Positions 1,719 to 58,410 of a stretch of 64,000 nucleotides of DNA are shown piece after piece (the first letter of the stretch is position 1; every line of letters begins with the position of its first letter). The translations under genes and the position numbers were made by a program. Location: assembly GCA_964530135.1 (NCBI GenBank), contig CAZGXN010000001.1:4110-68109 (forward strand), written 5' to 3'. The notes under the pieces were generated by a model, which ran no database searches, was not told the DNA's origin, and saw only the letters and a program-made list of their open reading frames with translations. The DNA comes from an uncultured Bdellovibrionales bacterium. Lineage in GTDB: Bacteria; Patescibacteriota; Minisyncoccia; Moranbacterales; UBA1568.

Positions 1719-1801
1719 TTTGCCAGAGCATCAAATATTCTTGCTATCCTGAGTTCTGTCGAAGAAGAACAAGAAACAAAAAGACTTGATGCTCTGGCAA
1801 A
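1719..1801. repeat. 16-bp perfect inverted repeat (tttgccagagcatcaa / ttgatgctctggcaaa) with a 51-nt spacer
   Basis: Arms at 1719-1734 and 1786-1801. It sits in the 5' leader/promoter region of the 1038-1709 gene. Confidence 0.6.
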
Positions 1802-2088: not shown

Positions 2089-4161
2089 TTATTTGCCCTT
2101 TTCCTGCCGCGCGCCATCAATAAGTGCCCGAACAGCGTTCACATTAATATCGGGCTTGCGGCGGAGTGCTTTAAATCTTTTCGGCTCAATATGCTGGGTC
2201 TGTGATAGCTTCATCGGCGGCTCAGGTGCAGTGTATGCACGGAGCTCGGTGGACTGACGGCGCTCTGGACTCAGTGGCTTCTCAGTCAGCCGCTGCTGAG
2301 GAACAGGAGCGGCAGATTTCGTTTGTGCCACAACCTGATTCCGCTCCCGAGCGATCGCCCGCTGGTAATCACGCAGACAATCCTTACAAAATGTTGGGCG
2401 AGAAGCGTCGGGGGCAAAGGGTACTTCAATATCAATGCCACAAGTTGCACAAACTGCTGGATACAATACTTTTTCAGGGACCACTGCCGGTAACTCAGTC
2501 TCAAACATGTTTTCTGCCTCTTCAGGTGTTGCACTGTCCGGTACAACTTCAGGGGTTGGTGTAATGGGTCGCTGAGTTGAAGAAGCTTTCGGTAGTTTCG
2601 ATGTACTAGCTGATACAGTAATTGACTCAGTCGGTTCAGAAACTGTTTCAATACTCGGCTTGGGTAATTGCACAGGAATCGGTCTCGGTGCGATCGGCCG
2701 AGCCACTGGCTTGGGACGCGCTGGCTCGGTTATTTGTTCTCGCTTTGCGATCGTTTCGGTGCCGTGCAGTGGTGCTATTCGTTCCCGCGAGGTCGGACGT
2801 GGTGCTGTAGTCAACGGAGTAGTCTTTGGAGCTGCTGTTGCAGGTGTTCGCAGTGCCTGCTTTTCTTCTTCGGTCAACATCCCCGTCCAACGCCGGATCT
2901 TTTCTTCAACCTCTGCTTGTGAGGAAGCATAGCGTTCGCGAGTCGCCGCAATCACTTTCTCATTGATCCCGGGCGTTTCAATAAGAATCGGTGGAAGTGT
3001 CGTCGCCGAGAAAGCGTCCCCCGCGATACCATCTATCATCAGCTTGAGATAGATCTGATATTTCGGCAGATTCACCATGTCGTTCATCATGAACACTGGC
3101 TCGAATTCCTTTTCGAGGAACTCAGCATCCTGCGCTCCGACGCGGAAAGAAATAATCGTGCCCGCGTTGCCAAAAATTGCATCCCGAACTGGCTCTTCGA
3201 GCTGTGTAATATACTGATTGGCCAGAATGAGTGAAAGGCGATATTTCCGCGCTTCTGAGAGAATGTTGGCAAATGAGTCTGTCGCAAAGTTCTGAAATTC
3301 ATCGACATAAAGATAAAAATCCTTGCGGTCTTCCTCCGGTGTGTCCACGCGGCCCATGGCGGCGAGCTGGATCTTTGTGATCATCATCGCGCCGAGGAGT
3401 GCGCTTGAATCCTCACCGATCTTACCTTTAGCGAGGTTCATGATAAGGATTTTCTTTGAATCCATCACTTCACGGACATCGAATGCGCTCGTCGCCTGAC
3501 CGATAATATTGCGTATCAGACTGTTTGAAGTAAATTGACCGACTTTATTCTGAATCGGAGAAATGACTTCTTGAAGTACGCGTTCATTCCATCCCGCAAA
3601 TTCAACCGTCCAAAATTGTTTTACGACTGGATCAGTTACCTTCTCCATCACCCGCTCACGATAGCTCTTGTCGACGAGAATCCGCATGACACCCAACAAA
3701 CTCGCACCCGGGTATTCCAAGAGAGCAAGAATCGCATTTCGGAGAATATATTCCAGGCGTGGGCCCCAAGAATCCGCCCAGATTTTTTTAAACACCCCAA
3801 CCAAGCCAGATGCCACAAGCGAACGCTGATCGGCTCCAACTTGTTCCAATACATTAAAAGCAATCGGGAAGGCTTGGTCAGCCGGATCAAAGTAGATCAC
3901 ATCATTAATGCGTTCCGGCGGAATGGCTTTGATGAGTTTGAGAGCGACATCACCGTGCGGATCGATGAAACAAATGCCATGCCCCTGTTGGATATCCTGA
4001 ATTGCCAGGTTCTCGAGCAGATTTGTTTTCCCCATGCCGGTCTTGCCGATGAGGTACATGTGCCGACGACGGTCATCGGCCTTGATACCAAAAACCCGTT
4101 CTTGATTGCGGAAATTCGTCTTGGCGAACACGGTAATTTGATTGTCAGCGGACTCGGGCAT
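2089..4161 (-). CDS. type IV secretion coupling-protein-like P-loop ATPase (TrwB/TraD/VirD4 family). Soluble, with a Pro-rich linker and a C-terminal CxxC...CxxC zinc ribbon.
   Basis: Walker A IGKTGMGKTNLLENL followed by the FIDPHGD motif (the DPxGD signature of T4CPs). Walker B YLYVDEFQNF. There are no N-terminal TM helices. The C-terminus contains CATCG...FCKDC. Confidence 0.6.
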   Translation of the reverse strand: MPESADNQITVFAKTNFRNQERVFGIKADDRRRHMYLIGKTGMGKTNLLENLAIQDIQQGHGICFIDPHGDVALKLIKAIPPERINDVIYFDPADQAFPIAFNVLEQVGADQRSLVASGLVGVFKKIWADSWGPRLEYILRNAILALLEYPGASLLGVMRILVDKSYRERVMEKVTDPVVKQFWTVEFAGWNERVLQEVISPIQNKVGQFTSNSLIRNIIGQATSAFDVREVMDSKKILIMNLAKGKIGEDSSALLGAMMITKIQLAAMGRVDTPEEDRKDFYLYVDEFQNFATDSFANILSEARKYRLSLILANQYITQLEEPVRDAIFGNAGTIISFRVGAQDAEFLEKEFEPVFMMNDMVNLPKYQIYLKLMIDGIAGDAFSATTLPPILIETPGINEKVIAATRERYASSQAEVEEKIRRWTGMLTEEEKQALRTPATAAPKTTPLTTAPRPTSRERIAPLHGTETIAKREQITEPARPKPVARPIAPRPIPVQLPKPSIETVSEPTESITVSASTSKLPKASSTQRPITPTPEVVPDSATPEEAENMFETELPAVVPEKVLYPAVCATCGIDIEVPFAPDASRPTFCKDCLRDYQRAIARERNQVVAQTKSAAPVPQQRLTEKPLSPERRQSTELRAYTAPEPPMKLSQTQHIEPKRFKALRRKPDINVNAVRALIDGARQEKGK

Positions 4162-4214
4162 AAGATGCGTTGATCTAAAGCGAAAAAACGGTTTGAGTAC
4201 AAGCCTCAGTGAAC

Positions 4215-5492
4215 CTATTGTACTGGCAAATTGTTGGGGGCGCCACCACGCTTAGTCATGACGCGTGAAAGGGCTGGCGCGAGCACCTGCATATCCGGCA
4301 GATGAAACACTGTCGCCAGTTCTTCTGAAGAGAACATGAAACAGTTACTCGGTGGGTCAGAATCACGAGTAATATAGCGACGAAATAACCGACGCTGACG
4401 ATACCGCGTCCGCTGATCGACCAATAGATAACTCGCATAGGTCTTGGTGAGGTCGTCCGGTACCATGCTGTTTAGATTGAGATCATTGAATTGTTTGATC
4501 GCTCCGATAAAGGCCGAGACACCGGTTGCTTTGGAGAAATGCTCTTTTTGACCGATATACACATGGCGCATTTTCGTCTTGAACATCGGCTTACCAATAT
4601 TGCTTTCCAAGGCCTTCAGTATATCTTTTTGTCCAGGCGTGAGTCGGAACTCAACTGGTTGCTCTTCGGCCGCAGCGGCTTCTGAGAGACTCGTCCACGT
4701 CAATTCCTGTCCCAAGAGACCAGAAAACAAATTGCGGAAGACGTCCACTAAATCATGCCAAACCCGCGCAAAAATACCCAATCCGGCAACTTCTTCGTGT
4801 CCCAAAAACTCCTCGATCGTCGCCTGACCTTTCTTGGCTCCCCAATCCTCTTTCACAGGAGTTACCAAAAATTGGAGCCAGAGATGCTGTCCCGGACCGA
4901 TCTTCCCCATCGTTTCAATCAATCCAGCCAATGGATCAAGCATTTTTCCGGTAACGGATTCTTCAAAAAATTTATATGTCCGAATCGGGTAAAGGTCCGG
5001 TTTGAATAATATAAACTCTGTTCCCCACAAGTCCCAATCTCTGTTTGGCAGTGTCCGCGGCACATGCTTTGTATAATCCTCGGCCTCGACAATCTCGACA
5101 TTCGGATACTGCGCATAAAAATGTGCTTCAACCAAATTCCGAAAGGGTTTCTGAGTCCGAATATACATATGGACCAGTCCTTCGGTACTGACAAGCTCGA
5201 GGCTAAACTTGGCCGGGTATTCACCCGCGATATACTCTTCAAAAACAGTCGGTGATTTAATCACGCCGCCAAACCCCGAAAAAATCATCTCCATCGGATG
5301 TGGACTTTTTTCGAGCTCTTTCGGAGGAATAATCTCGAGTAAGACCCACTCAATGTTGCTTCCAAAGAGTTCATTACGACTGCTCAGCCAGAGAAATATA
5401 AACAACGGGTATAGAACGAACGGGAGTACATAAAACCAAACATCGCTCGCCACAGAAGCAATGGTCAATATGTTGTAAAAAAATTCAATCAT
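4215..5492 (-). CDS. membrane protein (2 N-terminal TM helices plus a ~350-aa soluble domain). Probable partner or anchor of the downstream coupling-like ATPase.
   Basis: Hydrophobic N-terminus VWFYVLPFVLYPLFIFLWL. It is co-directional with the ATPase gene, 54 bp upstream of it. Confidence 0.5.
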   Translation of the reverse strand: MIEFFYNILTIASVASDVWFYVLPFVLYPLFIFLWLSSRNELFGSNIEWVLLEIIPPKELEKSPHPMEMIFSGFGGVIKSPTVFEEYIAGEYPAKFSLELVSTEGLVHMYIRTQKPFRNLVEAHFYAQYPNVEIVEAEDYTKHVPRTLPNRDWDLWGTEFILFKPDLYPIRTYKFFEESVTGKMLDPLAGLIETMGKIGPGQHLWLQFLVTPVKEDWGAKKGQATIEEFLGHEEVAGLGIFARVWHDLVDVFRNLFSGLLGQELTWTSLSEAAAAEEQPVEFRLTPGQKDILKALESNIGKPMFKTKMRHVYIGQKEHFSKATGVSAFIGAIKQFNDLNLNSMVPDDLTKTYASYLLVDQRTRYRQRRLFRRYITRDSDPPSNCFMFSSEELATVFHLPDMQVLAPALSRVMTKRGGAPNNLPVQ

Positions 5493-5673
5493 GCCACTGC
5501 ATCACTCATTACGCGACTCTCAGTCTCTTCTCATAGTATAGAGAGTTTTTGCGCGCGAGGAAACTCTTTCCTCTGGTCCGGAAGGATATAACGGTAAAAA
5601 GATAGGGCGACATATCGAATCATCAAATGGACACGATGCACTCGATCAGACAAGTCTGAAACAAATCACGGAA

Positions 5674-6780
5674 TTACTTCCGCTTATCGGAGAGAGAGTA
5701 GATATTTTTTCCTACCTTTGTGAAAAAACTATTGAGGTTGATGATGACCGTCGAACGCTTTACTTGACGGACCTTCATCACGGCCTTCAAGAGCTCTTCG
5801 CGTGTCATAGGATTAACATTCTCTTGGAGGATAGAAGAAAGGACTTCGCGAACAGTCCCAGGACGAAACCCCCAATCAGAAAGAGCATAGGTACCCCGCC
5901 CAACTAGAACAAAGCGTTCATCTTTGATGAGTTCATTATGCACGGTTTGCGGATGTGTCTTCTTGCCCGTTTTGTAGAGGCCGTGCTCATCAATGAGACG
6001 GGCAATTTCACGGAAATGCAGTGGCTGTTTCATCACCTGGAGTATCAGATGGGCACGCTCGCGAGTCCCACGGGGACGGATAGTACTCCAATGGACAAGT
6101 CCGTAACGACCAAAAACATTTTTCTCAATTTCAACAGCTGGAACAAGCAACGACTCAAACATTTCTTTCGTCATATCAGTCGCTCCGGATTTCTTTATAT
6201 ATCGAGCATAGAGATCGTCCAATGACTGAGTCTCAGCCGCCTCCTTGAGAATACCAACGACCAATACTACGAATGCTTCCCATTCTTGAAGAGAAAAATC
6301 ATCCGTCATAATAATCGCTTTGTGTCGCGTGTTCGCCTTGCTCATCCGGCATCCAGGAAAAGCTGAGAGTAGGGCGAGGAGCGCCTTTTCTTCCGAGACA
6401 CTGCCATTTCCCAAGTCTGCGAGAACCGCATCGATCGTCATGATCCCACCTCGTTGTCTCACTCGCTCAATGACACGATTCACCAATGCATGATCTGCTT
6501 CATGGGCCATAATTTCCCGAATCCGCCGCATGATGACATCGACGATCTGACGGACTCGCTCGCGCGTGATACCATGTGTTTTCCCAATTTCTTCGAGTGT
6601 CTTTTCGGTACCATCTGTAATACCAAAACGCGCGCGTGTAATGACACCCGAACGCTCAGGGAAAGACGCCAATAAAGCATCAAAAAGATCTTCGGCCGTA
6701 CGCGTACTTGACAGACGAGCAGAATCAATAGTTTTCCTTCGTTCGGACATAAAAAAATCAATAATTATGATCTCTAACAA
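5674..6780 (-). CDS. DNA-binding protein with a sigma-70 region-4-like HTH and a C-terminal HARE-HTH domain
   Basis: TLEEIGKTHGITRERVRQI is a classic sigma70 r4.2 HTH. The C-terminal PLHFREIARLIDEHGLYKTGKKTHPQTVHNELIKDERFVLVGRGTYAL matches the HARE-HTH pattern. The likely start is the second Met (MSERRK). Confidence 0.6.
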   Translation of the reverse strand: MLEIIIIDFFMSERRKTIDSARLSSTRTAEDLFDALLASFPERSGVITRARFGITDGTEKTLEEIGKTHGITRERVRQIVDVIMRRIREIMAHEADHALVNRVIERVRQRGGIMTIDAVLADLGNGSVSEEKALLALLSAFPGCRMSKANTRHKAIIMTDDFSLQEWEAFVVLVVGILKEAAETQSLDDLYARYIKKSGATDMTKEMFESLLVPAVEIEKNVFGRYGLVHWSTIRPRGTRERAHLILQVMKQPLHFREIARLIDEHGLYKTGKKTHPQTVHNELIKDERFVLVGRGTYALSDWGFRPGTVREVLSSILQENVNPMTREELLKAVMKVRQVKRSTVIINLNSFFTKVGKNIYSLSDKRK

Positions 6781-21803: not shown

Positions 21804-23894
21804 CTAGATCGAGTACGCCTCGTCTTTCAGTTTATTATAGAGCATATTCGCTACTTTGCGCGGCAACATCGCGTTCTCCAGAAGCTCGCCCAGCATCCGC
21901 TCTTCGGTTTTGAAGAGCGCATAGCGACCGAAAGACTCATTTAGGTAGGCAAGTTCGGTGCCTATCTTGGTAGCTACTGCATCGCGTTTCTGCTCAGCAT
22001 CGGCCCGAAGCCCCTCGTAGAGCGCGATCACGGATTGGATCGAGGCATCATCCCCGTAAAGCCCGGGGAAGCGTCCCGAGATCGACTTTAGGCGTCGGAG
22101 TACCTTGGCCAACACTACTTCCTGAGCGCGGTAATAACGATATTCCTCGAGGAGCTCCTGCTTCGGGGTCTTCGGGTAGAATTTCTTTCGTAACCTCATA
22201 ATAAGCGTCTCAAACCAATCCTGCTGGAACCGCTCGGCATGACCCATCACCTGCTCTTTCCCCTCCTCGACACGGTCGGTCTGAATAGCGATCTTATTCA
22301 GGATTTCCTTGTATTCCGATTCCGAAATCTCCTGATAAATGTACAACTCCTTCAGAAAGCGTTTTTCCATACCAAGCGCATATACCTGGAGCGCACGGCC
22401 CATATCGGCGGGGATTGCGTCAAAGAGGGATTTGCAAGAAGCAGCTGATTGCTCATAGCGCTCCGTATACTCGCGTTTCAAACGCTCAAAGATCTCATTC
22501 TTTACATACCCCTTGCTATGGAAGTCCCCGAGTTTCTCGAGCGCCTCCTGATAAACCAGAGCCGAACACTCATGATACTCCACAGTCTCAAGCGGCGTCA
22601 GGTCGGATAACTTCATTTTTTTGATCATCGTTCCGATCGAGGTCGCTTTGATGCAAAGCGTGAAGTAGATGCAGCCGATCGTGATCGCTGCGATAAACTC
22701 CTTCACGGTAAAGTCATAACTCCAGCCCGGAAGTGTGAGCGTATCCGGGATGAGGAGCACCATCGTAACTGCAAGCGCACCACGCAAACTCCCCCACGCG
22801 AGAAGATGCTGCCAGGAGATTGGGATCGGTTTTTCCTTTTTCAATCGATTGACCATCGCCACCACCGGATAGATCGAGAGCGCACGCCCAATGAGAACGA
22901 CGACGACTGTGATGAGCATCGGAGCGATGAATTGATCGAACTGTATCGGGAGGTCAGCGAAAAGAAGCCCCATGAGAATGAAGACTAGTGAATTGGCCAC
23001 GAAAGCGAAATAACCCCAGAACTTCTCCATATATTCCTCGACGCGTGGCGAGATCTTGAAACGACCGTAATTGCCAATCACCATCGATGCCATAACCGTC
23101 GCGATGATCGATGAGAACTTGATTTCTTGTCCGAAAAGCACGAGATGATGCGATATGAGTTCGGAAAGGATGAAAGTGAGGTGTGCCACAAGCATGGTCA
23201 GTGTAATCTCGATATGCTCATTATCCTTCACTTTGCCGATGATTTTTGAAAAGATGAAGCCCATGAAAAGGCCAAAAGCGACACCCCCCAGGACCATAGT
23301 CGTAAACATGAAGAGTCCGCCGAGAATACTGCCGAATCCGGTAAATCCCGCAACCGCTACTTCAAGGACGATGAGGAAAAGAGCAAGCGAGGTTCCATCA
23401 TTAAAAAGACTCTCCCCTTCGAAAATGAGTGAGAGCCGGCGCGGTACACCAAACTCCTTGAAGAGTGCGAGCACTGCTACCGGATCTGTCGCTGAGATGA
23501 GCGCACCGAATATAAGGGTTGCCATGAACGGTACCGGAAAGCCGATGAGTGTCAGACCCACGTACAATGCAAAAGCAACAAAAAACGCCGAGATGAGTAG
23601 GCTCACAATCGAGAGCCACGAGATCGAACGAATGTTCTCGGCCATCTCCCGCATATTCATGTTGTAAGCCGACTCAAAGATAAGTATCGGCAGAAAGACG
23701 AAGAAGAGAAGTTCCGGTGTCAGCTGGAAACTCTTAATGAAATGGAAAAGAGGGAAGTTTGAGAGCGGGACTAAGACCGAACCGACGATGACCAAAAGCA
23801 CCGTGTACGGAACTTTCAAACGGCCAGCGACAAAATATGTCCCGATACAAATAAGCATAAGCACCGCGACCGCGAGGACGACTTCGAGCGACAT
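21804..23894 (-). CDS. CPA1-family Na+/H+ antiporter (NhaP-type) with a large C-terminal cytoplasmic domain
   Basis: The ATDPVAVLALFKEFGVPRRLSLIFEGESLFNDGTSLALF signature is present. ~12 TM helices. Confidence 0.8.
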   Translation of the reverse strand: MSLEVVLAVAVLMLICIGTYFVAGRLKVPYTVLLVIVGSVLVPLSNFPLFHFIKSFQLTPELLFFVFLPILIFESAYNMNMREMAENIRSISWLSIVSLLISAFFVAFALYVGLTLIGFPVPFMATLIFGALISATDPVAVLALFKEFGVPRRLSLIFEGESLFNDGTSLALFLIVLEVAVAGFTGFGSILGGLFMFTTMVLGGVAFGLFMGFIFSKIIGKVKDNEHIEITLTMLVAHLTFILSELISHHLVLFGQEIKFSSIIATVMASMVIGNYGRFKISPRVEEYMEKFWGYFAFVANSLVFILMGLLFADLPIQFDQFIAPMLITVVVVLIGRALSIYPVVAMVNRLKKEKPIPISWQHLLAWGSLRGALAVTMVLLIPDTLTLPGWSYDFTVKEFIAAITIGCIYFTLCIKATSIGTMIKKMKLSDLTPLETVEYHECSALVYQEALEKLGDFHSKGYVKNEIFERLKREYTERYEQSAASCKSLFDAIPADMGRALQVYALGMEKRFLKELYIYQEISESEYKEILNKIAIQTDRVEEGKEQVMGHAERFQQDWFETLIMRLRKKFYPKTPKQELLEEYRYYRAQEVVLAKVLRRLKSISGRFPGLYGDDASIQSVIALYEGLRADAEQKRDAVATKIGTELAYLNESFGRYALFKTEERMLGELLENAMLPRKVANMLYNKLKDEAYSI

Positions 23895-23985
23895 ATATTT
23901 TTAGGGCTGATTTTTTTACCAAACAAAAGAGGCCTTCGGAGCCTATTCAGAATCTCTCTTTCTTTACGAGAAACTGATATTTCGA

Positions 23986-24075
23986 GCGAAAAATATAAAG
24001 ACTGAGGAGGGCTACTCAGAGAGTAACGCGACGAGGCCTGAACCTTTTGCAGCCGAAAGAGCAGTTTCGGAGTAG
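23986..24075 (+). repeat. conserved intergenic element, copy A (core ctgaggagggctactcagagagtaacgcgacgaggcctgaa)
   Basis: ~60-90 nt highly similar to 35601-35670 in the same orientation. Not an open reading frame (in-frame stops). Confidence 0.7.
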
Positions 24076-24147
24076 AATACGGAGATTTTGAAGCGGCTCC
24101 TTAGCCAGATTTGATACCCCACCATCCTACTCCTCTCTTGTTTTTTG

Positions 24148-24182
24148 TCAAAACAAAAGACCCCTTTCAGGGCCTTTTTTGG
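24148..24182 (-). terminator. hairpin with flanking A/T runs downstream of rplL (bidirectional-terminator-like)
   Basis: aaaagacccctttcagggcctttttt. Confidence 0.5.
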
Positions 24183-24200
24183 ATCTCTGGAAAAGCGAGA

Positions 24201-24602
24201 TTACTTCAGAGTTACAGTCGCACCAGCCTCCTCGAGCTTCTTCTTCATTACTTCGGCATCGGCCTTAGAGACCTTCTCCTTGATGACTTTTGGAGCAGCA
24301 TCAACGAGGTCCTTGGCTTCCTTCAGACCGAGACCGGTCACTTCACGAACCGCCTTGATGGCGTTGATCTTCTGCTGACCAGCGGCGGTGAGCTCGACAT
24401 CGAAGTCGGTCTTTTCCTCGACGGCTTCAGCAGCGGCAGCTGGCGCAGCACCCATCATCATCGGGGCAGCGGCTGAGACACCAAACTTTTCCTCGAGCAC
24501 CGTAACGAGCTCCGAGAGATCGAGTACACTCATCTTCTCGATTTCAGCGACGAGCTTCTCGAACTTGGCTGGCACAACGACATCTTTCTTCTCTTCTGAC
24601 AT
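24201..24602 (-). CDS. rplL: 50S ribosomal protein L7/L12
   Basis: Ala-rich hinge and the C-terminal [24 protein letters not shown] motif. Confidence 0.9.
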
Positions 24603-35000: not shown

Positions 35001-35509
35001 AATCACTTTCGAAATCCGGCCAACCACTCTACTTTGTTACCCTCGAAGACATGAGTGGCCGCATCGATGTCCTCGTCTTTGGAAAAACTGCCGAACGCGT
35101 CGCCGGACTCCTCGTCGAAGATGAAATCATCATGATGGACCTAAAGATCGGGCACAAAGACGGACTGCTCCGGCTCGCAGCAGATGATGTCCGTCGGATG
35201 AACCTGGACACGGTTTCTGATTTCGGCCGGGTCACCAAAACACATCAGAAATACCAATATGGTCAAACTGAAGCGCCAAAGCCAATCCAAGCCGGCATCA
35301 TCATCCACTGTGATGACTCGGCCGATGCTCGGCTCTTTGATGAGATCGGGAAAACCCTCCGCCATCTCCCAACTGGGCCAGTTGCCGTAACGCTCCAACT
35401 GCTCGGTCAGACCATCGCCACTTCTTTCTCTATCGAAAAAAACCCTGCTGCAATCACCGCACTCTCCACTCTCCCGGGAGTAACACAGGTCGAGGAACAG
35501 GTGGCTTAA
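32021..35509 (+). CDS. dnaE: DNA polymerase III alpha subunit
   Basis: FVHLHTHSHYTLL is the PHP-domain start. 1162 aa. The OB fold is near the C-terminus. Confidence 0.9.
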   Translation: MGFVHLHTHSHYTLLTALPTPDDLLARAKELGMTALALTDTSALYGAVEFYSHARDLGIKPILGAEVWVSKDLRSKNNTAEDRRRNQLVLLVKNETGYKNLLKIISIAQLEGFYYKARTDKVLLRQYHEGLIALSGSLQGEVPAETLYGNIERAKAVALEYQDIFGPGNFYLEIQPHLNYENQVVVNQGLVHISRETGIPLVATNDIHYLRPEDAETQDVLLAIRDNKKVTDNERFSMKAFDLSFRSETEMRELFRDIPEAIDNTEKIANQCDFILKMGENQLPSFPLPDGITPDNYLRELCEAGLTKRYPGETITPEQRERMDYELSVIASTGFASYFLIVQDFVNWAKNNGVVVGPGRGSAAGSFVAYLTGITNLDPIKYDLLFERFLNPERISMPDVDMDFADTRREDVLNYVRQKYGADHVAQIITFGTMAARGSIRDVGRALGIPLELCDKTAKMIPMFTSIQGALDGVPEFQAHYNSSSDVKRLVDAAKKIEGLARHASMHACGVVITKDPVTEYTPLQRVAGGENTVVTQYAASTKSNAVEKIGLLKMDFLGLKNLTIIENTLKIAKKIGKEVPDIEKLPMDDAASYKVLQDAHTTGVFQLESTGMKRYLKQLKPTVFEDIIAMVALYRPGPMEYIPDFIAGKHGTREVKYLHPLLEPILKNTYGVAVYQEQLMQIARDLAGFSLGEADVLRKAVGKKIKELVDGQRVKFVEGCEKTGVGRAIGEKVFAFIEPFAGYGFNRSHAACYALIGYQTAYLKAHFPAEFMAALLTSDQGDTDRIAIEVREAREIGIDVLPPDVNESFDSFAVIQGEDGKEHIRFGLSAIKNVGTLAAEEIVAERKRNGKYTSLEDFMNRVQTKDLNKRTIEALAKVGAFDSLSERKIVLENLDAILRHGKELRTLKETHGQSLFGDMPLPEMKIPLKETVHSTKSERLAWEKELLGLYVTDHPMTEYTEYLKKAATEIGQLEKESDGKRVTIGGVITSVRKSLSKSGQPLYFVTLEDMSGRIDVLVFGKTAERVAGLLVEDEIIMMDLKIGHKDGLLRLAADDVRRMNLDTVSDFGRVTKTHQKYQYGQTEAPKPIQAGIIIHCDDSADARLFDEIGKTLRHLPTGPVAVTLQLLGQTIATSFSIEKNPAAITALSTLPGVTQVEEQVA

Positions 35510-35600
35510 AGAGATCCGGAGCCTTCCCAAAATCACCTTTTTAGGACATACTGGAGCTCATCGCAAAAAAGAGCTTTAGGCGGTTCTGCAGCAATCTTCG

Positions 35601-35670
35601 GCGAAAACTATGAAGCATGAGGAGGGCTACTCAGCGAGTAACCCGACGATGGCTGAATGGTTCGGAGCTA
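35601..35670 (+). repeat. conserved intergenic element, copy B (core atgaggagggctactcagcgagtaacccgacgatggctgaa)
   Basis: Matches copy A at 23986-24075. It lies in the miaA 5' leader. Confidence 0.7.
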
Positions 35671-35725
35671 AGATTGATAAGAAGCAGTCAAAGATTGTTT
35701 TTTGCGATAAACTCTCACGCTACCT

Positions 35726-36622
35726 ATGGAAAAACCACCCATCATTGTCATCGTCGGACCGACCGCGTCCGGCAAGTCCAACCTCGCCATTGTACTCGCC
35801 CGAGAACTTGGTGCTGAAATCATATCCGCTGACAGTCGACAAGTGTACCGTGGTATGGATATCGGCACCGGCAAGGTAACGCGCGAGGAGCAGCGCCAGG
35901 CACGCCATCACCTCCTTGATGTTGCCAACCCGAAAATTGAATACAATGTCTCACATTTCCTCAAGGATGCGACAGCGGCCATCGCCGATATCGAAGCGCG
36001 CGGGAAACGCGTCATTCTCTGCGGTGGGACGACCTTTTGGATCGAATCACTCCTTTTAGGTATTCCCCTTCCGAAAGTGGTGCCGGATCAGGCTTTCCGT
36101 GAAAAATGGGGCAGGAAAGAGGCCGGCGAACTCTACGGCTATCTGAAGCGTCTCGATCCAGAACGAGCCAAAACGATTGATCGACAGAATAAGGTTCGGC
36201 TCCTCCGGGCGATTGAAATCGCGAAGGCGCTCGGTAAAGTGCCCGTGATCGATCCATCGCTCCGACCCGATCTCTCACGCTATGTCGTCATCGGCCTCAA
36301 TCCGCCTGTCGAGGAATTGAATAAAAAGATCCGTGAACGGCTCATGGGTTGGATGAAAGCTGGGCTCGTGAACGAAGTCATAAAACTGAACCGGAGTGGT
36401 GTATCTTATGAACGGCTCGAGTCGTTCGGACTCGAATACCGTGCCGTCACTCGATACATTCAAAAAAAGATTACCGATACCGAACTCTATACCGAGCTTC
36501 CCTACGATATCATCCACTATGCCAAGCGCCAGCGTTCGTCCCTCCGCCGCCTCGAAAAACAAGGTGTGAAAATCCACTGGGTGAAAGACGCTGCCGAAGC
36601 ACTGAAAATCACAAGAGGATAA
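35726..36622 (+). CDS. miaA: tRNA dimethylallyltransferase
   Basis: IIVIVGPTASGKSNLAI, then ISADSRQVYRGMDIGTGK. Confidence 0.9.
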   Translation: MEKPPIIVIVGPTASGKSNLAIVLARELGAEIISADSRQVYRGMDIGTGKVTREEQRQARHHLLDVANPKIEYNVSHFLKDATAAIADIEARGKRVILCGGTTFWIESLLLGIPLPKVVPDQAFREKWGRKEAGELYGYLKRLDPERAKTIDRQNKVRLLRAIEIAKALGKVPVIDPSLRPDLSRYVVIGLNPPVEELNKKIRERLMGWMKAGLVNEVIKLNRSGVSYERLESFGLEYRAVTRYIQKKITDTELYTELPYDIIHYAKRQRSSLRRLEKQGVKIHWVKDAAEALKITRG

Positions 36623-56793: not shown

Positions 56794-57198
56794 TTAACAA
56801 CCAACGAATGCGGTAATGCCCGTTTCATCCAGCGTCGCCATGCACGGTGTAGTCAAGAGCGCCGACGGGACATCGACCGAAAATGTCTGGCTTGCTGCAG
56901 GACCGCAATCCTGGACGTCATTTGTGATTCCAGCTGCATTGACATCACTCGGAAATGTTCCAAATGACCCCGTAGCATCTGTGTAATCAATCGCACCATC
57001 ATCACATGCTGCAAGTGCCTGTGTCTGGATCGAATGAACGACTGCTTTAAACCGTCCCACCTTCGCTTTTTCCCGAGCACCCGAGAGCGAGACGAGCACC
57101 ACCGAGGCGAGAATGCCGATGATCGCGATGACGATGAGGAGTTCGATCAAGGTGAAACCCCGCTGCCCCACAGACCACTTTTTAAATGCTGTATTCAT
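56794..57198 (-). CDS. type IV major pilin, variant 1 (shared leader and N-helix, distinct C-terminal domain)
   Basis: [14 protein letters not shown]|[20 protein letters not shown]. Confidence 0.8.
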   Translation of the reverse strand: MNTAFKKWSVGQRGFTLIELLIVIAIIGILASVVLVSLSGAREKAKVGRFKAVVHSIQTQALAACDDGAIDYTDATGSFGTFPSDVNAAGITNDVQDCGPAASQTFSVDVPSALLTTPCMATLDETGITAFVGC

Positions 57199-58214
57199 AC
57201 ATCTTTATGTTTATTTACACTACACCCTCATTATATACCGCCGGAAAAAAAAGACAAGGCTTCCGCCCTGCCTTTATTGTTCACACTGCCATCAGACTAG
57301 CAACCTGCTGGAAATGTAACACCATTCTGATCGATAGTCGTGCCGTTGGCTCCTTCACAAGCCGTCGCCACAGTTCCGGTACCCAGATCAAGCGAGTTTG
57401 TCGTGATCTGAAATGTCCCAGCACCGTTGGCTCCACAGCTCGAACCAGCGACCAATGTGAGCGTCCCTACCCAGTTGCTGCTCGCCGGAACCGACACATT
57501 GGTCCCGATGGTGATATCCGCACTGTCGCAGACAAGCACCGCATTGGCCTGGATGGAATGCACCTGCGCCTTGTAGGCTGCGGCCTTCGCTTTTTCCCGA
57601 GCACCCGAGAGCGAGACGAGCACCACCGAGGCGAGAATGCCGATGATCGCGATGACGATGAGGAGTTCGATCAAGGTGAAACCCCGCTGCCCCACAGACC
57701 ACTTTTTAAATGCTGTATTCATACATCTTTATGTTTATTTACACTACACCCTCATTATATACCGCCGGAAAAAAAAGACAAGGCTTCCGCCCTGCCTTTA
57801 TTGTTCACACTGCCATCAGACTAGCAACCTGCTGGAAATGTAACACCATTCTGATCGATAGTCGTGCCGTTGGCTCCTTCACAAGCCGTCGCCACAGTTC
57901 CGGTACCCAGATCAAGCGAGTTTGTCGTGATCTGAAATGTCCCAGCACCGTTGGCTCCACAGCTCGAACCAGCGACCAATGTGAGCGTCCCTACCCAGTT
58001 GCTGCTCGCCGGAACCGACACATTGGTCCCGATGGTGATATCCGCACTGTCGCAGACAAGCACCGCATTGGCCTGGATGGAATGCACCTGCGCCTTGTAG
58101 GCTGCGGCCTTCGCTTTTTCCCGAGCACCCGAGAGCGAGACGAGCACCACCGAGGCGAGAATGCCGATGATCGCGATGACGATGAGGAGTTCGATCAAGG
58201 TGAAACCTTTGTAT
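57060..58214. repeat. tandem direct repeat, period 524 bp (two complete, essentially identical copies plus one partial), spanning the pilin genes
   Basis: The antisense ORFs 57186-57824 and 57710-58303 translate identically over ~165 aa. Pilin 2 and pilin 3 mature sequences are identical. Pilin 1 and pilin 2 share leader and N-helix. Confidence 0.85.
57297..57722 (-). CDS. type IV major pilin, variant 2
   Basis: Same leader as variant 1. Mature domain identical to variant 3. Confidence 0.8.
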
Positions 58215-58234
58215 GTTTTATTCATAATTCTCAC
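57821..58234 (-). CDS. type IV major pilin, variant 3 (different short leader [10 protein letters not shown])
   Basis: [10 protein letters not shown]|FTLIELLIV. Preceded by the RBS aggagg. Confidence 0.8.
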
Positions 58235-58410
58235 CTCCTTTCTTGTTTGTTTTTGTTATGTTCGCACATTTTTATTGTATCGTATTTTTCACTCATACGG
58301 TAGATTTCTGTCAAGCGACTACACAACACACATTCAACACTCTCTCCTCAGTTGTGTGTCAAATGTGATATCTTGACCAGTCCCCAGGCCCGGCTGTGTG
58401 TTCCTTTGCA

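Follow-up and report, generated by a model that had tools for sequence, protein, structure and literature searches.

A probable MITE family with a near-invariant centre in Candidatus Moraniibacteriota

The ERIC (IRU) sequences of enterobacteria are 127-bp imperfect palindromes that lie in transcribed intergenic regions in either orientation, contain a highly conserved central inverted repeat, and occur in variants with internal insertions. Y1/HUH transposases of the IS200/IS605 type neither duplicate their target nor require terminal inverted repeats. In ISfinder, 3-bp TNA duplications are linked to the IS1031-like groups of IS5, and Tourist MITEs derive from PIF/Harbinger. Prokaryotic MITEs are defined as small elements that end in terminal inverted repeats, have direct repeats that erode with age, insert into AT-rich intergenic DNA, and give transcripts with stable stem-loops (PMC10969869). 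Effects of ERIC/IRU elements on mRNA are documented; in Neisseria, Correia elements (NEMIS/CREE) are inserted beside promoters, form part of transcripts as hairpins that RNase III can cleave, and contain a functional interior IHF site (PMC10969869). Members of the IS1031 group of the IS5 family insert at three nucleotides (PMC2516522), and canonical Harbinger elements, which are related to IS5, have 3-bp duplications (PMC12730594).

The window analyzed here, a 64,000-nucleotide stretch of DNA, belongs to Candidatus Moraniibacteriota, a CPR/Patescibacteria lineage, as judged by protein matches. The initial annotation drew attention to a repeat that occurs twice in this window, and our analysis confirms two stretches in the same orientation that align without gaps and are 81% identical over 68 nt. 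A 24-nt core pattern, allowing up to 3 mismatches, has only these two matches in the window (0 expected in 100 shuffles), and an nhmmer profile of the core retrieves both copies with E ~1e-20 and nothing else in the window. The gene context was also described correctly. Copy A occupies the spacer between rplL (24602..24201) and a CPA1 Na+/H+ antiporter gene (23894..21804), both on the minus strand; copy B lies between dnaE (ending at 35509) and miaA (starting at 35726), both on the plus strand. The proposed extent holds for the 68-nt core, but this core is only the centre of a larger unit: each core forms the apex of an imperfect palindrome that spans 161 bp in copy A and 147 bp in copy B. A ttcggag motif that had been regarded as a further shared segment is non-homologous, as it is offset from the core by +79 in one copy and +59 in the other.

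Comparison with relatives indicates that both window copies are insertions. The rplL-antiporter spacer measures 306 nt in the window and in L011, a contig of the same strain, versus 144–146 nt in L007 and L008, which lack the element and whose antiporters are 95% and 93% identical, respectively, to that of the window. The empty site in these two contigs reads, on the antiporter sense strand, as a hairpin GGCTCGCGAGAGCC followed by TGTTTTGTTTG. Similarly, the dnaE-miaA spacer is 216 nt long in the window versus 48–51 nt in L003, L005, L020, and L021, in which the element is absent and MiaA is 81–84% identical to that of the window. The third site at which presence and absence were shown independently is located upstream of lexA in L002, another Moraniibacteriota contig and the only match in a degenerate scan of metagenome contigs. 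The L002 copy is homologous to copy A across 161 bp, well beyond the core. An identical LexA (P0255) is encoded on ten contigs; the lexA site is filled on four of these (L002/L026, L028, L029, and L031) and empty on L025 and L027, while the remaining contigs end beside or inside the element. Without the element, the site is TTTTA-TAA-CACG and has one TAA only (in L025, ...TTTTATAACACG..., ...CAGTTTTATAACACGTGC...), and the filled site reads ...CAGTTTTA-TAA-GAACCTGTTTACAATCTC...GAGATTGTAAACAGGTTC-TAA-CACGTGC... Checked against the empty site, the L002 copy has a perfect 18-bp terminal inverted repeat (18/18) and a 3-bp target duplication, TAA/TAA.

A fourth copy, L014, came to light through P0241, a spurious open reading frame that reads across the element (profile of concatenated frames). 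It is 217 bp long because it carries nested insertions, and it has L002-type ends that are complementary at 15 of 18 positions; its TGA/TGA flanks are read from the filled site alone. Orientation relative to neighbouring genes varies: copy A is antisense, whereas copy B, L002, and L014 are sense. Several independent metagenome contigs break close to the element: L012 and L013 begin immediately outside copy A, 35 nt before the ATG of the antiporter gene, and L030, L032, and L033 begin ~14 nt past the L002-type copy, 97 nt before the ATG of lexA. Breaks of this kind are expected where assemblers encounter repeats or insertions for which the population is polymorphic.

The ends of the two window copies differ (Table 1). 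Copy A aligns end to end with L002 505–665 at ~78% identity, and its left repeat GAGCCTATTCAGAATCTC is homologous to the L002 repeat GAACCTGTTTACAATCTC. Its flanks contain no clean duplication: TCG on the left faces CTT on the right, or TTC faces TTA if the repeat is taken to be one base longer. Two other readings of this site were rejected. Derivation of the copy A arms from an inverted duplication of the target conflicts with their homology to the L002 and L014 arms elsewhere, and a 14-bp duplication of the whole target hairpin conflicts with the unlike flanks and with the L002 homology, which puts the ends further out. Copy B begins with TCGCAAAAAAG and ends with TTTTTTGCGA, which are complementary at 14 of 20 positions, and both its arms and its ends differ from those of copy A. 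Degenerate relics of A-type ends are found inside copy B, CTGCAGCAATCTT at 35585–35597 and AAGATTGATAAGAAGCAG at 35671–35688.

Table 1. Coordinates of the two element copies and adjoining sites in the window.
Feature	Position	Strand	Basis or remark
Copy A, whole element, 161 bp	23939..24099	+	Imperfect palindrome / rod-like hairpin; L002 subfamily, L002 length
Copy A, left terminal inverted repeat GAGCCTATTCAGAATCTC	23939..23956	+	15/18 match to reverse complement of 24082–24099
Copy A, right terminal inverted repeat GAGATTTTGAAGCGGCTC	24082..24099	+	Pairs with left repeat, 15/18
Copy A, 68-nt core common to copy B	23986..24053	+	Pairwise alignment, nhmmer
Copy A, near-invariant apex TGAGGAGGGCTACTCAGAGAGTAACGCGACGA	24003..24034	+	Comparison with L002, pairing scheme
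Copy A, left flank GGCCTTCG, remnant of small target hairpin	23931..23938	+	Empty site in L007/L008
Copy A, right flank CTTAGCC, other half of target hairpin	24100..24106	+	Empty site in L007/L008
Promoter-like site TTGACA-16-TAGGAT, reading through copy A (reverse complement) towards antiporter gene	24124..24151	-	Consensus match only
Copy B, whole element, 147 bp	about 35561..35707	+	Spacer comparison, fold
Copy B, 68-nt core	35601..35668	+	Pairwise alignment, nhmmer
Copy B, apex TGAGGAGGGCTACTCAGCGAGTAACCCGACGA	35618..35649	+	2/32 positions differ from copy A apex
TCA left of copy B, maybe one half of degenerate TNA target duplication	35558..35560	+	L005 empty spacer has TCA at corresponding place
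TAA right of copy B, maybe other half of duplication	35708..35710	+	Inference
-10-like hexamer CATACT of miaA	35547..35552	+	Spacer alignment with relatives; promoter role inferred from conservation

Searches of sequence collections for further copies yielded L002, L014, and two copies known only as spurious open reading frames, P0275 and P0276, which were found by an exhaustive HMMER search with P0241. They yielded nothing further in the window or in the viral, phage, plasmid, and E. coli collections. In the genome contig collection, the apex pattern had one chance match, in a Mucilaginibacter gyrA-like coding sequence (L001 6729–6749, peptide MGRATQGV). The viral contigs contained no match for two apex patterns and four chance matches for the terminal repeat, all inside one phage gene. 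Phage, plasmid, and E. coli collections gave no match, and neither did blastn with 11-nt words against 5,426 E. coli genomes. A covariance model of the core, run over all related loci retrieved (~330 kb), returned the known sites only. In total, only six or seven distinct copies have been seen, two of them, from different subfamilies, within the 64 kb of the window.

The element is a small (147–161 bp; 217 bp in L014), imperfect palindrome over its whole length, with no coding capacity and no transposase gene. These lengths fall in the MITE range of tens to a few hundred bp. Its terminal inverted repeats, its 3-bp target-site duplication relative to an empty site, and its presence or absence at three independent sites support one option offered in the initial annotation, a miniature repeat element. 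These properties fit the published definition of prokaryotic MITEs, which supports the same identity (PMC10969869). We consider it very likely that the repeat forms the conserved middle part of a MITE, a non-autonomous DNA transposon, and that this MITE is specific to Candidatus Moraniibacteriota. As a MITE family it is new, although the kind of selfish DNA is itself ordinary: we found no earlier description of this element family in the literature, and full-text searches for a MITE report in CPR/Patescibacteria returned no relevant paper.

By its TNA duplication, the element recalls the IS5 family (IS1031/IS427-like), the prokaryotic kin of the eukaryotic PIF/Harbinger elements. Copy A starts with GAG and L002 with GAA, which we take to agree with the usual ends of the IS1031 group. 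Tourist-type MITEs, whose parents are of the IS5 (IS1031/IS427)/PIF-Harbinger type, resemble the element in their short non-coding form, terminal inverted repeats, 3-bp TNA duplication (TAA and TGA here), and AT-rich non-coding targets close to genes. The Moraniibacteriota element differs from them in being palindromic throughout and in having a centre that is more conserved than its ends, and its putative link to IS5 draws on the duplication. Correia elements share its approximate size (~100–160 bp), terminal inverted repeats, short target duplication, and promoter-adjacent insertion; they belong to another phylum and show no sequence similarity, no IHF consensus is visible in the apex, and copy number is apparently far lower in the present family. 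The likeness to ERIC lies in the imperfect intergenic palindrome found in either orientation, the conserved centre, and the variants with internal insertions. However, the Moraniibacteriota apex is asymmetric outside a 21-bp near-palindrome and the target duplication is clear; membership in ERIC was rejected on the blastn result, since ERIC is present in every E. coli genome.

We propose a model in which a DDE transposase from a full-length insertion sequence elsewhere would act in trans to cut out or copy the element and insert it into AT-rich spacers next to promoters. The insert would then be co-transcribed, in either orientation, as a long hairpin in a 5' UTR. Its apex would be held constant through service to the element, most likely as a transposase- or host-protein-binding or bending site that joins the two ends of a short element; alternatively, the apex may act in the folded plus strand. 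Among 20 window open reading frames searched with Pfam, none encodes a transposase or belongs to a full-length element with matching ends, and the window holds no further copies of the element ends. Further observations weigh against the MITE reading. Copies A and B, which reside in one genome, share only the core and have unalignable ends, which is unusual for substrates of one enzyme. The centre is better conserved than the ends, the reverse of what the simple model predicts. Finally, clean 3-bp TNA direct repeats flank two copies only (L002 and L014); copy A has none and copy B has the imperfect pair TCA/TAA.

RNA folding of the whole elements gives -65 kcal/mol for copy A (z -4.6), -77 for L002 (z -9.0), and -70.6 for copy B (z -3.3), and all copies fold as a single long rod. 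An alignment of three sequences predicts 60 pairs, with pairing in 88.9% of cells, as opposed to 29–44% when the partners are slid by 1–3 columns. In the suggested check for compensatory changes, 16 pairs have changed on both sides, compared with 0–2 in the slid controls. The plus strand is more stable than the minus strand by 8–20 kcal/mol in all four copies. A short ctgag/ctcag hairpin that had been noted in the core is present in copy A only, the corresponding segment being AUGAG in copy B and UUGAG in L002. The conserved hairpin is instead GGG-C-UACUC-AGM-GAGUA-A-CSC, and it lies within a 32-nt asymmetric apex with the consensus UGAGGAGGGCUACUCAGMGAGUAACSCGACGA (laid out as U-GA-G-GA-GGG-C-UACUC-AGM-GAGUA-A-CSC-GA-C-GA). 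The apex is predicted to fold into two tandem G.A/A.G mismatches around a G-C pair, followed by a GGG/CSC helix, a C.A mismatch, a UACUC/GAGUA helix, and an AGM triloop.

Copy A and L002 differ at 1 of 32 apex positions and at 34 of the 129 positions outside the apex (Fisher p = 0.003). Copy B retains the apex as well, despite arms that are otherwise unalignable, the differences from copy A falling on a loop base and on one base of the GGG/CSC helix, and the apex is kept at the peptide level in P0275 and P0276. It is damaged only in L014, which has two nested small insertions. One of these, a 36-nt hairpin-forming insertion at L014 10218–10253, splits the apex just after UUGAG; the L014 apex also has three base changes and looks like that of a decaying copy. 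The GC-rich motif CCTGCCTGCCGGTAGG, which forms a mini-hairpin, occurs in the 20-nt insertion nested in L014 (10186–10205) and in the P0275 and P0276 copies (peptide DLPAGRLE). On the other strand, the same motif is found upstream of lexA in L028 (841–853 and 974–986), L027 (159–171), and L029 (134–146). It may be a REP-like mini repeat; a search of the window did not find it.

Several of these features could also be accommodated by a mobile palindrome that moves by another mechanism, either through a single-stranded DNA hairpin intermediate (an IS200/IS605-type PATE or a REPIN/RAYT system) or through a structure-specific recombinase that recognizes the apex. The whole-length palindrome with its strand bias in stability, the contrast between a conserved apex and variable ends in copies A and B, and the position of copy A inside a pre-existing small hairpin agree with such a mechanism. 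We nevertheless regard it as quite improbable. The element has 18-bp terminal repeats and clean TAA and TGA duplications, the left flanks of the copies share no common 4–5 nt sequence, and, as single-stranded DNA, the apex on its own shows no significant structure; an IS200/IS605-type PATE or REPIN would lack a duplication, have subterminal hairpins and a fixed 4–5 nt sequence on the left, and depend on a Y1/HUH transposase. REPINs, which are REP doublets moved by RAYT, and the Rickettsia palindromic elements are likewise small mobile palindromes whose hairpin is kept through changes in both arms. However, REPINs have conserved arms, a variable loop, and no TNA duplication, the reverse arrangement of the Moraniibacteriota element, while the Rickettsia elements insert in frame into genes. 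Very improbable, in our view, is a free-standing gene for a structured plus-strand small RNA (for example, a 6S-like or protein-sponging rod) that spread by horizontal transfer or duplication and not by transposition. The rod-like shape with its many two-sided pair changes, the better folding of the plus strand in four copies, and a near-invariant asymmetric apex with two tandem G.A motifs are what such a gene would show. On the other hand, the plus strand of copy A has no promoter-like or terminator-like site, and transcription from a plausible source would reach only its minus strand; the terminal inverted repeats, together with a 3-bp duplication that can be matched to an exact empty site, are typical of DNA transposition; close relatives lack the element at orthologous sites, and it is therefore no conserved gene; and insertions break the apex in L014. 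The covariance search suggested in the initial annotation turned up no relevant Rfam family, the Rfam 15 matches being one tRNA in the whole window at gathering thresholds and two chance snoRNA matches at E <= 10 around copy A. The option of a free-standing small RNA is disfavoured by Rfam, by the copy A plus strand, and by the contrary orientations that the copies take relative to their flanking genes. Particular RNA motifs were considered and discarded as well: a hammerhead (CUGAnGA), of which the C varies and GAA is replaced by GAC; 6S RNA, for which Rfam gives no signal; a C/D-box-like K-turn, whose CUGA is not conserved in L002; and a boxA-like CUCUUU in the arm, which is a resemblance alone.

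A small protein with the hairpin as the fold of its mRNA appears highly improbable. The candidates are a basic peptide of 29 aa, (M/L)RRATQRVTRR... (from 24002 / 35617), and an acidic peptide of ~22 aa, MK(I/H)EEGYSESN... (from 35610, copy B). No copy has a stop in either frame within the core; of the roughly six core differences between copies A and B, three are silent in the RRATQ frame; the stop codon has the same position in copy A, L002, and L014; and five of six copies have an ATG for the MKIEEGYS frame. Yet the RRATQ frame would start with CTG in copy A and TTG in L002 and L014, and the other frame with ATA in copy A; no Shine-Dalgarno sequence stands at a working distance, as GAGGAGG overlaps the start or follows it; and the length of the copy B reading frame is unconserved (66 or 89 codons, running into miaA). 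The dN/dS-like ratios of 0.55–1.07 are no better than those of antisense frames, and between copy A and L002 none of the six frames shows purifying selection (ratios 0.55–1.38). Five candidate peptides have no Pfam match at E <= 10, and exhaustive protein searches lead only to spurious read-through frames. The original statement that the repeat is not coding is thus right in outcome, but the in-frame stops cited for it are an incomplete reason, since two frames are open through the core; the conclusion follows mainly from the missing start codon and Shine-Dalgarno sequence and from the substitution pattern. Interpretation of MRRATQRVTRRWL as a relic of a transposase N-terminus (DUF4096-like) was also unsupported. 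A host cis-regulatory element of the downstream genes (a leader, attenuator, or operator) that was duplicated by chance is barely credible, even though three of the four copies have a predicted -10 hexamer on one side and a start codon on the other and the apex contains the 21-bp near-palindrome GGGCTACTC-N3-GAGTAACCC, which has the look of an operator. The genes that follow the copies are unrelated to one another (antiporter, miaA, lexA, and a DUF1361 gene), orientation varies among copies, and the orthologous genes of close relatives, even of strains with an identical LexA, lack the element. The leader option of the initial annotation is not supported, on the same grounds of differing downstream genes and empty orthologous spacers. 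Its transcription-factor option survives in part: a protein-binding site in the apex is possible, but only as part of the mobile element.

For the MITE that we favour, the constancy of the apex could be explained in our analysis by a binding or bending site that aids synapsis, comparable to the IHF site of Correia elements, by a relic of an untranslated region of the parent, or by a module of the folded plus strand. It is tempting to speculate, though we hold it unlikely, that the 32-nt apex is a functional module under purifying selection, an RNA or DNA protein-binding motif that MITE backbones with different ends carry into 5' UTRs as mobile "cargo." Such a module would explain the shared apex of two subfamilies with unalignable arms, the consistently better folding of the plus strand, and the location of three of four copies between a -10 hexamer and a start codon. 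It may take the form of the two tandem G.A pairs and the triloop hairpin or that of the operator-like near-palindrome, and its protein partner may be cellular or element-encoded. Only in its conserved apex does the element depart from a textbook MITE. A conserved TAGAAT in the 3' arm was considered as part of an outward-facing promoter and set aside as speculation, as there is no usable -35 hexamer.

From the position of the copies between -10 hexamers and start codons, transcription as long 5'-UTR hairpins would be expected. In relatives, the -10-like hexamer of miaA lies 8–19 nt upstream of the ATG (L020 9985–10003, L003 9985–10003), which suggests that their miaA mRNA is leaderless or nearly so. 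In the window, copy B separates this hexamer from the ATG at 35726 and would turn the miaA start into a ~170-nt 5' UTR with no visible Shine-Dalgarno sequence. The TTGACA/TAGGAT hexamers upstream of the antiporter gene are kept in L007 and L008. A ~150-nt hairpin before miaA and an enlarged hairpin before the antiporter gene could change the expression of both genes. CPR/Patescibacteria have very small genomes, which are typically portrayed as containing little mobile DNA; the polymorphism between near-identical strains shows ongoing transposition in Moraniibacteriota. The family can also serve as a marker to type strains, and it helps to account for broken contigs in metagenome assemblies.

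Other features were seen alongside the element. On the minus strand of the window, two hairpins between rplL and the antiporter gene (24124–24185 and 23920–23950) are each followed by TTTTGTTTTG or TTTTGTTTG; the TTGACA-16-TAGGAT site lies between them, and copy A sits in the second. About 20 nt to the left of the L002-type site is a second, unrelated GC-rich palindromic element, CTTGTCATTGCGAGGAAGCGAAGCGACCGAAGCAATCCAGG...GGGATCGCAATGACAG, with inverted ends GTCATTGCGA and TCGCAATGAC. It occupies L028 903–1020, recurs in L025, L027, and L002 (~380–480), and is found in filled and empty contigs. A hairpin at window 1719–1801, in the spacer after the open reading frame 993–1700, has 25-nt arms (88% complementary) and a 33-nt loop and is unrelated in sequence to the MITE. 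Window 2089–4161 encodes, on the minus strand, a 690-aa protein with TrwB/TraG/VirD4-type coupling-protein domains and a treble-clef zinc finger, which is predicted to be a component of type IV secretion or conjugation in this CPR genome. Three tandem direct repeats of 524 nt, 89–95% identical, span window 57025–58207 and overlap the open reading frames 57186–57824 and 57710–58303. Finally, L022 (CP064974.1) contains at 2112–6330 a LAGLIDADG endonuclease gene (4257–4691) and a gene for a 296-aa reverse transcriptase (RVT_1, 5440–6330), adjoining a 2-kb stretch devoid of called genes; this could be an rRNA intron or retroelement region.
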